Shown here: positions 5,624 to 50,772 of the stretch, piece by piece
Layout: each line of letters opens with the position of its first letter
Numbering within the stretch: position 1 is the first letter of the stretch
Source: Octopus vulgaris
Taxonomy: Eukaryota
Length of the DNA: 64,000 bases
Direction: 5' to 3'
Assembly: GCA_951406725.2 (NCBI GenBank)
Contig: OX597831.1
Coordinates: 53,506,001-53,570,000, forward strand
Made by a program: the position numbers and the translations under genes
Notes under the pieces: model-generated
Databases searched by the model: none
What the model was told of the DNA's origin: nothing
Seen by the model: only the letters and a program-made list of their open reading frames with translations

Positions 5624-5669
5624 AACACAACGTTTCGGCTGATATACCCTCCAGCCTTCATCAGGCGTC
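5624..5669 (-). ncRNA. Minimal type I hammerhead ribozyme
   Basis: Minus strand: gacgc CTGATGA a ggctg-gagggtatat-cagcc GAAA cg TT gtgtt; stems I and II pair; stem III is the palindrome AACGTT. Confidence 0.75.
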
Positions 5670-5772
5670 TTGAGGAAATTTCGAACCTGGGTTCTCATTC
5701 TTAAGGTATTTTTGCTCTTATTATTATTATTATTATTATTATTATTATTATTATTATTAGATATTTTATTAG

Positions 5773-5815
5773 TTGAATGATATTTCAACAGTACGTCTGT
5801 CTTTGTCAAGTTCAA
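5773..5815 (-). ncRNA. Minimal hammerhead variant with U3-A8 core pair, 3' of a Penelope ORF
   Basis: Minus strand: ttgaac TTGACAA a gacag-acgta-ctgtt GAAA ta TC attcaa, followed by AATAAA. Confidence 0.6.
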
Positions 5816-6006
5816 AATAAGAAGTGATAAAAATTCAAAATGACAGAAATTTAAATGTAAAGTATGAATGAGAGCAACCAGCGTCCACATGCTGATGGAA
5901 TGACATCATCAGTTTTTAAGTTACAATTTTATAATAGGCGAAAAGAAAAAGACAGAAAAAAGAAGACGACAGGAAAAAGGAAAGAAAAAGAGAGAAAGAA
6001 GAATAT

Positions 6007-6775
6007 TTAATCAAACAGCTTTGTATAAATTTGATGATGTTCTCCTGTCATCTTATTCATTCCTCCAGGGCGTGATGTTAATAACCCGCAAACATATTTC
6101 TCCTCATACATTCTGAGAAGTGAAAGCGAAGTAGATTCAGAATATTTTCTGAGAATATGCACTTTCAAGTCTTCTTCAAAATTGCAGCCACTTGAAATGA
6201 AATGTTCAGCAAGTTCTGTCGAAATACTGTTATTGTGCCTGACGTTGAATCTGTGCCCATTAAACCTTTTGTTTAATTGTTCTGTTGTGCAACCAGCATA
6301 AATTAAGTTGTGTTTTGTGCATTCTGCAGTGTACACCAAGTGGGAATCTTTACGTGTTCCACCTTCTGTATAAATCATAACATTTCTGTTATGATTTCTG
6401 ATGGAATTCACTTCACTCATGTTGTTGCACAATGAACAGGGCTTACCTCTCTTGCGGCTGTTCTTTAAGGTACAGCATGTAGATACTCCAATGTTCGTTT
6501 TCTTGGAGTCAGATTTAGAGGTCAATAATTCTCTTATATTCTTATTCCGTCTAAAGGCTACAATAGGCGGCTGAGGAAATCTCTGTTTGAAATGAGGATA
6601 TTTTTTTGCCACATGCTGGTAACTGTCATACACCACTTTTGAAATGCCAGCGAAATGTCGGTGCCAGTTAATCACTAAAGGAATTCTGTCATCTATTGTA
6701 TTGTGTTTGCTAAAATTATGCATATAGGTTTGACTATCTTTGCTAATCTTAGCTATTTCATTTGATATTTCCTTT
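6007..6775 (-). mobile_element. Penelope-like element, 5'-truncated, C-terminal linker plus GIY-YIG endonuclease (ORF 6007-6723)
   Basis: PIVAFRRNKNIRELL linker; CSLC; LVYTAECTKHNLIYAGCT..LNKRFNGHR; LAEHF; E-x-x-Y...GMN terminus typical of PLE GIY-YIG. Confidence 0.85.
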
Positions 6776-6781
6776 AATCAT

Positions 6782-7140
6782 GGGCATATGGTGTAGTGGT
6801 TAAGAGTGCGGGCTACTAACCCCTAAGATTCTGAGTTCGATTCCAAGCAGTGACCTGAATAATAATAATAATAATAATAATAATAATAATAATAATAATA
6901 ATAATAATAATAATAATAATAATAATAATAATAATAATAATAATAATAATGATAATAATGATAATAATAATAATAAGAGCAAAAATACCTTAGGAATGAG
7001 AACCCAGGTTCGAAATTTCCCCAAGACACCTGATGAAGGTGGGAGAGTATATCAACTAAAACATTGTGTTAGCAACAAACAAGATGAGGACAAATATCTG
7101 TCAAATGTAAATAATGTACATAATTCCTCATCTTTTAACT
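6782..7140 (+). mobile_element. tRNA-headed SINE with (AAT)n body and a hammerhead-bearing tail
   Basis: A box tggtgtagtgg 6789-6799, B box agttcgattcc 6834-6844, (AAT)n 6858-6976; tail about 6980-7125 is the reverse complement of about 5570-5715. Confidence 0.75.
7025..7070 (+). ncRNA. Decayed copy of the 5624-5669 hammerhead
   Basis: gacac CTGATGA a ... aAAA ca TT gtgtt; G12 lost and stem II damaged. Confidence 0.55.
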
Positions 7141-7569
7141 ATAGAACTGTATCTTCTTTGTTATACAAGAAAGAATCTTCATGATCACATGATCTGCCAG
7201 AAACAGCAGCTAAGTTATCTTTAATTACATCTTATTGTCTTATAAAAAGGAAGATGTCTGGAAAATATAGTCCTAGACAAACAAAAAGGATGCAATGGTT
7301 ATGACTGGAACTTCCTTGATTATGAGTCTGAAAATGCATTTGTGTTGTTATATTGTGCATTGTTTTATATGTATGTGGAATTGCTTTAGAGCACAGAGGC
7401 CAGTAGAAAGAGGCCATTGAGTTGGCTGTGGAGGCAGTGGAGGTTACCTCAAAGTGGCTGTGGATCAGGAAGTGTGAGCCCTTATAATTTTTATGGCTGA
7501 TTTGGCAAAATGCTAAAAATTGATAAAAGCAGCTAAGCTCAATATAAAACCATATAGGAAAAATTCAAT

Positions 7570-7892
7570 CATCACAAATTGTGAATGAGGGTGCTGAGAG
7601 CACCTATATTGCAAGAAATAAGAGTTAAAACCCTGGCCTTATTTGCAAGAACAGCACATTTATATATACTGACAGTGGGATCTAGCTGTTCCGTTGAAGC
7701 AATGAAGTGATACTGCTGGTGAGTCCTGAAGTTAGGGATGAAATGGGATCGAGTATTTCTAGTTGTGCTCATGGGACAGTTATCTCCCCTGTCAGTATAT
7801 ATAAATGTGCTTTTCATGCAACATTTAAGGGTTTTAACTCTTATTTCTTGCAATATAGGTGCTCTCAGGACCCTCAATTACAATTAGTGACA
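7570..7892. mobile_element. MITE/foldback element with about 120-bp terminal inverted repeats
   Basis: gagggtgctgagagcacctatattgcaagaaataagagttaaaaccct vs agggttttaactcttatttcttgcaatataggtgctctcaggaccctc; related copy at 47192-47458. Confidence 0.8.
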
Positions 7893-48904: not shown

Positions 48905-49206
48905 GCGCCCTTTTCAAGCCTAGCCAGGCTCATGGGCCCGGTTTCCCGGTTTCTGTGGCGTATGTGTTCCCCCCAGCTGGACGGGATGCCAGGCCATTGC
49001 AGTGTTACTCAAGAAACAGGAAGAAAGAGTGAGGGAAAGTTGGGGCAAAAGAGTACAACAGGGGTTGCCACCATCCCCTGCCGGAGCCTCATGGAACTTA
49101 AGGTGTTTTCACTCAATAAACACACACAACTCCCGGTCTGGGAATCAAAACCATGATCCTCTGACCGCAAGTCCGCTGCCCTAACCACTGGACCATTGCA
49201 CCTCCA
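48905..49206 (-). mobile_element. tRNA-derived SINE, family D
   Basis: Minus head ggaggtgcaatggtccagtggttagggcagcggacttgcggtc..ggttttgattccc; (TAAA)n tail. Confidence 0.7.
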
Positions 49207-49266
49207 CACACACACACACACACACACACACACACATATATATTATAGTGGGGTAGACCAGTTTAT

Positions 49267-49327
49267 GGGGTTACCTTGGGTTTCTTGCTCATAAGGGGCT
49301 TAGTTTTACAGTGTATCTTCAGATCCC
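49267..49327 (-). ncRNA. Hammerhead (family C relative) at the end of a palindrome
   Basis: gggat CTGAAGA tacac...gcaa GAAA cc-caa-gg TA acccc; stem II decayed. Confidence 0.5.
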
Positions 49328-49563
49328 AAACATTGCTGGTGTGAGACCTCTTTAAAATATGAAGGGGGAAAGCTTCGTTTTTTAAGAGTAAAACTCCATG
49401 GGATTGTCTCCCTTTACCATTGTCCATTGATCTTCAGCCATGAGATAATCACATAGGGTTTTACCTTTAAAAATGAGGCTTTTCTCCCTCAATATTTTAA
49501 GGAGGTCTCAGGCCAGCAGTGTTTGGGATCAGAAGATACACCATAAAGCTAAACCCCTTATGA
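49289..49563. repeat. Palindrome with about 120-bp arms (49289-49410, 49442-49563)
   Basis: gtgtatcttcagatcccaaacattgctgg..tgagacctc vs gaggtctca..ccagcagtgtttgggatcagaagatacac. Confidence 0.8.
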
Positions 49564-49684
49564 AGGTCACTTCTAGCTCTTACTGCATGCACAACCATGT
49601 ACTACCTCTGTTGGTGTGCTACAGAACTAGTCCGCAAACTTTTTGGTACCACCTCATTTATATACACATATGTGTGTTATGTTA

Positions 49685-50030
49685 CATGTATGTGAGTCTC
49701 ACAGAGGGAAACTTTAAAGAAAGATTTAACAATCACACCTTAAGCTTCAGACACTAGAATAAATGAAAATCTACTAAATTATCCAGTTATGTATGGTTCT
49801 TGAAAGAACAAGGTGCCAACTATAGTATTTACTGGAAGATCTTAGCCAAGTGTAACCCTTATACCAATGGTAGTGGCAAGTGCAGTCTTTGTAACATAGA
49901 AAGATGGCTCACCTGGAAAAGTTCATTCGACTCCACTACATGTTTAAATTCAAGAACTGAACTCTTTGATCATGTCCACGTGTCACAAAATACCTGTTAT
50001 GGTTTTGAGCCTCCAAGATGGTGACTAGAG
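49685..50030 (+). pseudogene. Penelope-like GIY-YIG remnant, paralogous to 45166-45828
   Basis: YVSLTEGNFKERFNNHTLSFRH* ... WKILAKCNPYTNGSGKCSLCNIERWLTWKSS. Confidence 0.85.
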
Positions 50031-50246
50031 CCCACATTTCTACTATGTCCCTGTACAAACTTTCCCATACTGTTTAACTTCCATTAATTTTTAATTTTAT
50101 TTTTGTTTTTGTTTTTATATATATATTGTATATTTATATATATATATATATATATAATTTTTTATATAGATGTGCATATATGTATATATATTATAGGCAT
50201 GTATGTATGTATGTGTGTGTGTGTATATGTATATGAGTGTATGAGT

Positions 50247-50772
50247 AAATACTAATCAGACACAGACTGTGTCATTAGGCAACTGGAGGCGATGTCTTCT
50301 TGGGGCTATAAATAACAGTAGCATTTTTCCATATGGGATAGCCACATTTAAGTGGCAAAAATACTTCACGATGTTGTGCTGTTACTGTTTACATCTCACT
50401 CAGAGATTTATTATTACTTGTTTATCCTTTACGAGATCAGCGACCGTTTGTCACTGGAAAAAGTATTTAGTATTTTGTGTTTGGAATCAGTTCTCACCCC
50501 TAGCTGGTGATTGTCCCATGCTGATGATGGGTTACTACCCAGAAACCTGGGTCCATGAGTATCACATAAGGCTAGAGATGGGAATGATGATTTCCTTTCG
50601 CAAATACTGATTGGACACAGACAGTGTGTCGTTAGCCAGCTGGAGGCGATGTCTTCCTAGGGCTATAAATAACAGTAGCATCGTCCCATATGGGTCAACC
50701 ATATTTAGGTGGCAAATATACTTCACGATGTCGTGCTGCTACTGTTTACATCTCACTCAGAGATTTATTATT
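50247..50772 (+). mobile_element. Non-coding unit: direct repeats of about 165 bp (period about 355) around a hammerhead
   Basis: aaatact.at..gacacagac..ctggaggcgatgtcttc..catctcactcagagatttattatt at 50247-50415 and 50602-50772. Confidence 0.8.
50517..50557 (+). ncRNA. Canonical minimal type I hammerhead, GUC site
   Basis: catg CTGATGA tgggt-tact-accca GAAA cctggg TC catg; all core nucleotides intact. Confidence 0.8.

Follow-up and report, generated by a model that had tools for sequence, protein, structure and literature searches.

Hammerhead ribozymes at the 3' ends of mostly decayed, likely Penelope-made insertions in a 64-kb window of the Octopus vulgaris genome

Several groups of mobile elements are known to carry hammerhead ribozymes. 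In the pseudo-long terminal repeats (pLTRs) of metazoan Penelope-like elements (PLEs), the motifs have a short or absent palindromic helix III, belong to many families per genome, occur mostly as solo copies, form opposite-strand pairs 100-700 bp apart and include a U3-A8 core variant (Cervera and De la Pena, 2014, PMC4209133). The Hydra clade, PLEs with a C-terminal endonuclease (EN), combines a DKT motif, a CxCx5C linker, a C-terminal GIY-YIG domain, a hammerhead and (TA)n targets (Craig et al., 2021, bioRxiv 2021.04.23.441226). Non-LTR retrozymes are built of non-coding tandem units, each of which carries a single type I hammerhead (Cervera and De la Pena, 2020, PMC7229834; bioRxiv 2026.07.22.740005). 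In the Schistosoma short interspersed elements (SINEs) Sm-alpha and Sj-alpha, a tRNA-like RNA polymerase III (Pol III) promoter is followed by a hammerhead, and the copy number is high (PMC6765202, PMC2770079). In this study, sixteen hammerhead motifs were analysed in a 64,000-nt stretch of the Octopus vulgaris genome (assembly GCA_951406725.2, contig OX597831.1, positions 53,506,001 to 53,570,000, forward strand), which is called the window. The window has 35% G+C and is rich in simple repeats; the genome is 2.8 Gb. The explanation that was considered very probable as a whole is that 11 repeat families (A to K, Table 1) account for 13 insertions, 5'-truncated and mostly decayed, whose 3' ends hold the motifs as type I hammerheads, that PLE enzymes likely made all of these insertions, that the copies in the window are likely inert, and that family A is likely a SINE transcribed by Pol III.

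The pLTR traits listed above were all shared by the octopus motifs. Compared with the published pLTR motifs, more families had palindromes of 8-16 nt, the stem II regions of families D, G and H were very long (41-58 nt), a U6 core was family-wide in C, and the estimated totals were above 2,000-9,000 per genome (PMC4209133). Solo motifs by the thousands and spaced opposite-strand pairs were already known from the same work. The bulk finding, namely many hammerhead stubs per window, is known biology, and what stands out is family A, the U6 core of family C and the young, microsatellite-carrying family E.

The sequence-only reading of this DNA had reported sixteen motifs from about 11 families. 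All 16 motifs and their helix-III strings were found again at the same place and on the same strand, and the family number was borne out. The 16 motifs, which are named here by position, represented 13 insertions because three motif pairs were each the two arms of one inverted insertion. The full core was retained in eight motifs; the core and all stems were intact in five of these (5624, 15915, 16874, 20633 and 50517), and the stems were damaged in the other three (14933, 36147 and 49267). Private core damage was found in six of the 16 (7025, 15049, 15310, 35486, 40841 and 46013), and two motifs (5773 and 43077) had only the variant core of their family with no private change. The motifs are real hammerhead motifs at the ends of 11 repeat families, and most copies are mutated and likely dead relics of PLEs and of non-coding elements that parasitise them.

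The support against chance was evaluated with shuffled sequences. Two window sites fitted a strict type I descriptor, compared with 0.06-0.10 per shuffle in 200 shuffles. With a scored scan that required the exact core and allowed a long stem II, the number was 5 window sites against 0.18 expected (50 shuffles), a hit rate above that of shuffled DNA. Fits with one or two core mismatches were near chance, with 11 versus 4.8 at score 14 and 34 versus 23.8 at score >=9. Since mismatched single copies score at chance level, the weaker sites were validated by family evidence and not alone. These relaxed fits are the point in favour of chance matches of a loose pattern in AT-rich repetitive DNA, an explanation that is refuted by the five intact motifs, by family sequences that restore the core and by the excess of palindromes described below; its probability was considered close to nil. 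An Rfam scan of the window gave no hammerhead family among the best 150 of 328 matches, and simple-repeat hits to microRNA models dominated. A weak candidate at 7706 was dropped because it had no relatives among the fetched loci, and candidates 39886 and 52689 were weak fits that were not counted. Further partial or doubtful pieces of hammerhead families, outside the original list, were located at 15003-15042 (-), 49509-49563 (+), 36626-36706 (-) and 53140-53174 (+).

Ten of the 11 families were present in high copy number across the genome, and a similarity search returned at least 40 scored matches for each of them. The numbers of first-look candidates, which are not copy numbers, were 3710 (A), 287 (B), 1539 (J), 172 (E), 220 (D), 1668 (H), 994 (G), 2757 (C), 779 (F) and 1141 (K). 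The family majority sequences restored 7 of the 11 core changes in the window copies, and the broken stem pairs that were checked were restored as well. This repair is independent support because the copies were gathered by sequence similarity and not by structure. Covariation within a family is not an informative measure here, since its copies derive from a single master and decay neutrally. The other four core changes were family-wide, namely U3-A8 in K and U6 in C. The majority sequence had a canonical core in nine of the 11 families, with these two as the exceptions. U3 with A8 was the commonest core in K (11 of 14 parsed copies) and is a known compensatory swap (PMC4209133, PMC3088659). 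In C, U occupied core position 6 in 34 of 35 parsed copies, and any of the four bases could stand at position 7. A naturally occurring A6C variant is described as having low activity, and an A6U variant was not seen in the consulted section of that source (PMC3088659). Stems I and II paired and helix III was short and palindromic, as in minimal type I hammerheads of the PLE type. The stem II of E had only 3 pairs and was without the usual G10.1-C11.1.

The copy-specific changes are relevant to the possibility that these motifs are host regulatory ribozymes under selection. Five copies were intact, and amniotes have conserved intronic hammerheads (PMC7229834). However, the intact copies belonged to young or little-diverged families, the copy-specific changes struck the catalytic bases G5, G12, A9 and H17, and all motifs lay within high-copy repeats. 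A host function under selection was therefore regarded as highly improbable.

The insertions of ten families (nine profiled families and E) had PLE-like ends, i.e., a fixed 3' end just past the ribozyme and a ragged 5' end. Beyond the cleavage site, the similarity broke off about 15-250 nt away at a fixed point or at either of two such points, and the upstream limit was variable. The flanks were mostly (TA)n, (TAA)n or similar tracts, and A, H and J often ended in other AT-rich DNA. Outward-facing inverted pairs were frequent in six families, usually with one arm tailed. Opposite-strand pairs were found in 16 of 30 loci for A, 12 of 30 for B, 9 of 30 for J and 6 of 20 for H (one inward), and seven outward pairs were listed for F and three for D; some loci overlap in these counts, so that one insertion can be counted twice. 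Exactly one arm was long-tailed in all 17 E pairs, 10 of 13 A pairs, 9 of 12 B pairs, 4 of 5 pairs each in F and H, and 4 of 9 J pairs. The paired insertions thus mostly showed an inverted 5'-truncated copy with a tail at one end only. This arrangement is known for PLEs (bioRxiv 2021.04.23.441226), and the one-sided tail has been tied to two reverse-transcription start sites (PMC11167929). The target-duplication test was uninformative for J, H, F, B and D owing to microsatellite flanks or internal palindromes.

A mechanism may be proposed by analogy with the described PLEs (PMC11167929, bioRxiv 2021.04.23.441226). In an AT-rich or microsatellite target, the PLE endonuclease would cut the two strands, and reverse transcription would be primed by each free end from one of a pair of start points that lie just 3' of the ribozyme. 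Both resulting cDNAs would be incomplete and would then be joined head to head, which would produce outward-facing pairs with the tail on one arm and would make the ribozyme the most often copied part. The ribozyme itself would act in the RNA of tandem source loci (pLTR-reading frame-pLTR units and retrozyme arrays), where the palindromic helix III would pair two copies, and the window copies would likely be inert products. Family A would likely be a Pol III-transcribed SINE that uses the PLE machinery.

The sequence-only reading had further suggested that such motifs work as dimers, which was overstated for the window sites. The pairs faced outward on opposite strands, and same-family, same-strand copies were 28-34 kb apart, with no such partner nearby. 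Because the fold-back arms are on opposite strands, one transcript would contain one sense ribozyme and no dimer in cis. Moreover, 11 of the 16 copies were damaged or variant. Folding of four motifs gave 0 helix-III pairs closable within one strand for A, 2 for J and 4 each for D and E. Tandem source loci could give rise to dimers, as could pairing in trans. For one PLE studied in vitro, cleavage needed protein, and catalytic mutants left insertion unchanged (PMC11167929).

Five families (E, K, I, B and F) are the ends of coding PLEs. A same-strand PLE frame was present 5' of the ribozyme in 20 of 21 K copies, 5 of 42 B copies, 2 of 28 F copies and the window copy of I; K, I, B and F carried only EN or reverse transcriptase (RT)-EN pieces. 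An RT/GIY-YIG frame was not found for A, C, D, G, H and J in the copies examined. All 40 scored matches of E were 100% identical over 101 nt, and a near-complete young Hydra-type PLE was located at L129:872-8199. This copy began with an inverted arm and a short 5' repeat with a ribozyme; the RT (506 aa) and endonuclease (222 aa) frames followed, and then came a 3' region of 2,590 nt, a second ribozyme and a 75-nt tail. Its two same-strand hammerheads, 5.19 kb apart, flanked the RT and GIY-YIG frame and thus formed hammerhead-bearing pLTRs in a partial tandem. Short tandem repeats made up 1,918 nt (about 74%) of the 3' region. The RT and EN frames were offset by one base in a C run, and a second locus, L139, read through. 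The longer run occurred in 2 of the 7 arms spanning the site and in contigs of four public runs; the frame offset may accordingly reflect a polymorphism or a slip in the assembly. The coding parts in other E copies were 98.8-100% identical, with the exception of one gapped arm.

The E protein had 1401 relatives at E <=1e-10, mostly of about 700 aa. DKT or DKS was present in all 105 long homologues and CxCx4-6C in 103 of them. The protein has DKT rather than DKG, a CxCx5C linker and no two-cysteine CCHH pair in the GIY-YIG core, which are Hydra-clade traits; the linker is common to family I too, whose PLE protein is 32% identical to that of E. Like the Hydra elements, E carries a C-terminal GIY-YIG domain and a hammerhead and inserts into (TA)n, and the junctions to (TA)n at both end points recurred in contigs from three studies (one maybe the assembly source). 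Compared with the Hydra clade, the E unit is 5.19 kb rather than <3 kb, which is a typical trait and no strict criterion, and the tail is about 75 nt rather than 30-40 nt. The unit is long because of the microsatellite-rich 3' region of 2.6 kb. Length apart, the motifs and (TA)n targets suggest that E is a young Hydra-type PLE. Each E insertion copied the microsatellite 3' region, in many cases in duplicate, so that a fold-back as long as about 7.5 kb resulted, and E-type insertions are a possible source of the genome's microsatellites and long double-stranded RNA. Decayed RT/endonuclease pieces akin to the E protein, with no listed motif, were also seen at 51860-52654 (-) and 49689-50007 (+).

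Families D, G and J are retrozyme-like tandem-unit elements, in which a non-coding unit of a few hundred bases contains a type I hammerhead. A same-strand recurrence of the family tail lay farther upstream, at a distance of about 355 nt for J (14 of 41 copies, with two more at about 1 kb), about 450 nt for G (9 of 20 copies) and about 490 nt for D (5 of 23 copies). Same-strand double ribozymes were found in 2 of 30 J loci and at no place in the window. A random genome stretch (C1:20000001-20010000) contained a young 359-nt array related to J, at L261:2250-4570, with five units on the plus strand, two inverted units on the minus strand and intact hammerheads, i.e., a textbook retrozyme source locus. 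D, G, J and this array share the non-coding tandem units (355-490 nt) with one hammerhead each with the non-LTR retrozymes. In contrast to those elements, D, G and J were mostly monomers or partial tandems with PLE-type inverted arms, and the D unit exceeds the 150-450 bp quoted (PMC7229834, bioRxiv 2026.07.22.740005). An endonuclease piece at 49689-49892 upstream of J and an RT piece upstream of one G copy were not assigned to J and G, because these are tandem-unit elements. Families C and H are treated with the opposing evidence below.

These families bear on whether the window holds an almost wholly non-coding retrozyme population whose copies work as dimeric ribozymes. The tandem units of D, G and J, the L261 array with its five plus two intact ribozymes, and a helix III of A that cannot close within one strand are consistent with this account. 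It is weakened by the PLE frames of B, E, F, I and K, by the opposite-strand pairs and the 11 damaged or variant copies, and by the window copies of G and J, which are partial tandems with one ribozyme each, and it was judged very unlikely. Part of the sequence-only reading stood, because the PLE/retrozyme population was dense, diverse and genome-wide, with a palindromic helix III and with a recognisable copy roughly every 4-5 kb, outside the window as well. Its description as mostly non-coding was true of the copies, which are non-coding stubs, but five of the 11 families are 3' ends of coding PLEs and only four were shown to be non-autonomous. The tRNA-like head of A and the young coding element behind E were absent from that reading.

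In the window, the family A pair encloses an inserted K element. Going upstream from the ribozyme, A consisted of some 45 nt, then an (AAT)n tract and then a head of 75 nt. The head occurred in 28 of 47 copies and was complete in 17, with diverging upstream flanks, and the head alone had 1861 first-look candidates in the genome. An A-box/B-box pair at tRNA spacing, defined by consensus patterns, was found in 13 of 47 A copies; the other eight families gave 1 such pair in 199 copies, and the background gave 4 in 639 tiles. T4 runs were present in 1 of 10 full-head copies versus 746 of 959 background tiles. Across all copies, they occurred in 5 of 47 for A, and the values for the other eight families ranged from 25 of 42 up to 21 of 21. 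Target duplications of 10-17 bp were found for 8 of 16 A pairs versus 14 of 240 mismatched pairs. The 3' ends lay at two fixed points 33 nt apart past the hammerhead, giving an optional 33-nt tail. Neither a poly(A) or simple-repeat end nor a tail in common with a long interspersed element (LINE) was seen, although the comparison contained no LINE library, and the ends were PLE-like instead. A therefore has the traits of a SINE, namely internal A and B boxes, no T4, a short non-coding body and target duplications. The A and B boxes point to a tRNA origin of the head. From its sequence, A is likely a tRNA-headed, T4-free SINE-like element with PLE-type ends, a Pol III SINE borrowing PLE enzymes.

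The nearest described case to A is Sm-alpha. A shares with Sm-alpha and Sj-alpha the tRNA-like promoter followed by a hammerhead and the high copy number. The A ribozyme differs in being minimal and loop-less, and A is dispersed rather than tandem (1 of 47 copies tandem) and has PLE-type inverted arms, two end points and target duplications (PMC6765202, PMC2770079). A published PLE-dependent SINE was not among the literature-search results listed. Such bipartite elements are reportedly named in Repbase-based reviews, and the priority of A is uncertain.

Alternatively, a coding PLE that escaped notice here may have captured a tRNA-like fragment in its terminal repeat, and A would be the 3' end of that element. 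The degenerate head and a few extra bases upstream of it that are common to some copies would fit such a capture, and in other families the reading frame appeared only after many loci. On the other side, none of the 47 copies had its own PLE frame, 17 reached the first bases of the head with diverging flanks upstream, A alone was without T4 runs, and the A body directly followed the head in 4 of 7 heads met in unrelated loci. The captured fragment was thus considered rather unlikely, and the Pol III SINE was preferred.

Several results weigh against the PLE-based explanation and its parts. The loci analysed were the copies most like those of the window and are a biased sample. The family I consensus came from only 3 relatives, which were met in fetched loci, and the genome search did not recover even the window copy. 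C and H had neither a PLE frame nor a tandem period (1 of 21 C copies was tandem). Opposite-strand pairs were found in 0 of 20 loci for C, 0 of 20 for G and 1 of 20 for K, and both arms were long in 5 of 9 J pairs. For A, the window pair had only a degenerate target duplication (score 6), the head was not called a tRNA by ARAGORN in 27 loci or by Rfam, and a partner PLE was not found. The E protein was not recognised in Pfam and PDB searches, and its RT and GIY-YIG labels come from motifs read in the sequence and from a few homologues with PF00078 or PF01541.

The density of the motifs was compared with other parts of the genome. Five intact motifs were found in the window, 10 in random stretches totalling 80 kb (at 4 loci, with 7 motifs from one array) and 0 in 20 kb beside the window, and the shuffled background was 0.18 intact motifs per 100 kb. 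Furthermore, 708 kb of search flanks, which are biased to insertion-rich DNA, contained 39 incidental intact matches, which fell into 23 further clusters. A perfect helix-III palindrome was present in 15 of these 23 clusters, compared with 2 of 34 hits in shuffled DNA. The flanks of loci L003 to L260 held at least 23 further families, several with a very long stem II and with an 8-12-nt palindromic helix III. With decayed copies of known families included, about 22 copies were found in 100 kb of random and neighbouring DNA, as dense as in the window. Hence, the window is typical of the genome, with about 5 intact motifs per 100 kb. Reported counts are 2,000-9,000 minimal motifs per genome (PMC4209133); for single species, they are 126,247 (axolotl, PMC7229834), about 38,500 (Schistosoma mansoni, PMC2770079) and 235 Rfam hits (giant squid, PMC6962438). 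The extrapolated octopus totals are of the order of 100,000 intact and 400,000-600,000 recognisable copies, from a random sample of only 80 kb. The density is high and not unprecedented, since the schistosome genome is far smaller than this one.

Table 1. Features of the window by family, with the position name of each motif (left blank where a row has none) and coordinates counted from the first base of the window
Feature	Motif	Position	Strand	Description
A, left arm, short 3' end	5624	5569..5717	-	Intact hammerhead, C3 to H17 at 5664..5629; helix III ACGT
A, (TAA)n tract		5718..5771	-	Target of family K insertion
A, tRNA-like head		6782..6857	+	A-box and B-box matches
A, internal (AAT)n tract		6858..6976	+	
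A, right arm, long 3' end	7025	6977..7149	+	33-nt tail; decayed hammerhead 7030..7065, G12A, stem II broken
K, 5'-truncated PLE 3' end		5762..6777	-	GIY-YIG frame 6777..6007
K, hammerhead	5773	5809..5779	-	Family-wide U3-A8 core; this copy has lost the first pair of stem I
B, inverted insertion		14898..15214	.	11-bp target duplication at 14898-14908 and 15204-15214
B, hammerhead	14933	14986..14939	-	Core intact, stems damaged
B, hammerhead	15049	15055..15102	+	G5A and G12A
B, second inverted insertion	49267	49236..49563	.	Hammerhead of - arm 49322..49272, core intact, stem II broken
B, second insertion, + arm		49509-49563	+	Stops inside stem II
C, copy	15310	15236..15345	-	Hammerhead 15341..15314, family U6 and private G8A
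C, copy between microsatellites	43077	42957..43173	-	Hammerhead 43108..43081, family-wide U6
D, copy	15915	15772..16115	-	Intact hammerhead 15997..15919, 56-nt stem II region; ~490-nt tandem unit elsewhere
E, fold-back, 3.9 kb		16781..20700	.	Two 5'-truncated arms joined at 18672/18673, in (TA)n; arms mostly microsatellite
E, hammerhead, long tail	16874	16918..16880	-	Intact
E, hammerhead, short end	20633	20639..20677	+	Intact
F, copy	35486	35337..35572	+	Hammerhead 35489..35521, A9G
G, partial tandem, 448-nt shift	36147	35784..36445	+	Hammerhead 36152..36211, core intact, helix III mismatch
H, copy	40841	40625..40989	-	Hammerhead 40920..40844, G at cleavage site H17 (family: A)
I, PLE frame		45163..45828	+	Thumb-linker-GIY-YIG, CxCx5C linker
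I, hammerhead	46013	46013..46075	+	Motif 46019..46069; U4C (U4 is majority of three relatives)
J, partial tandem, 355-nt shift	50517	50247..50775	+	Intact hammerhead 50521..50553
Palindromic element like a miniature inverted-repeat transposable element		7513-7949		Contains the weak hammerhead-like fit 7706
Related palindromic element		47188-47461		
Tandem array		21368-22230		61/123-nt periods; built from part of a dispersed repeat found at many window places
LINE-like frame		30957-34445	+	Endonuclease, RT, weak PHD-finger match right after RT; first 147 codons (AT)n
Tandem array		34529-34982		159-nt period
RT fragment		62413-63006	+	PF00078

The most far-reaching picture combines several claims. 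A would be a Penelope-mobilised SINE, with a Pol III promoter of tRNA type, a minimal hammerhead, a two-start PLE tail, thousands of dispersed copies and no tandem source. Its genome would hold hammerheads of dozens of families, with intact ones of the order of 100,000 and decayed ones of several hundred thousand, where C has spread with a non-canonical U6 core and a young Hydra PLE leaves behind kilobases of microsatellite, together with long fold-backs, at each jump. This joint picture is tentative, and the chance that all of its parts hold together was placed somewhat below even. Unclassified SINEs are a large share of the octopus repeat annotation, and ribozymes are not mentioned in the consulted part of its main text (PMC13282606). 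A PLE-dependent SINE, if true, would add a class to the SINE classification. This genome offers natural tests of what the hammerhead does in PLE transposition: E is a very young family with near-identical copies, C has spread despite U at core position 6 and with a variable position 7, and A may, as a short Pol III-type parasite, define the minimal cis signal for PLE enzymes.

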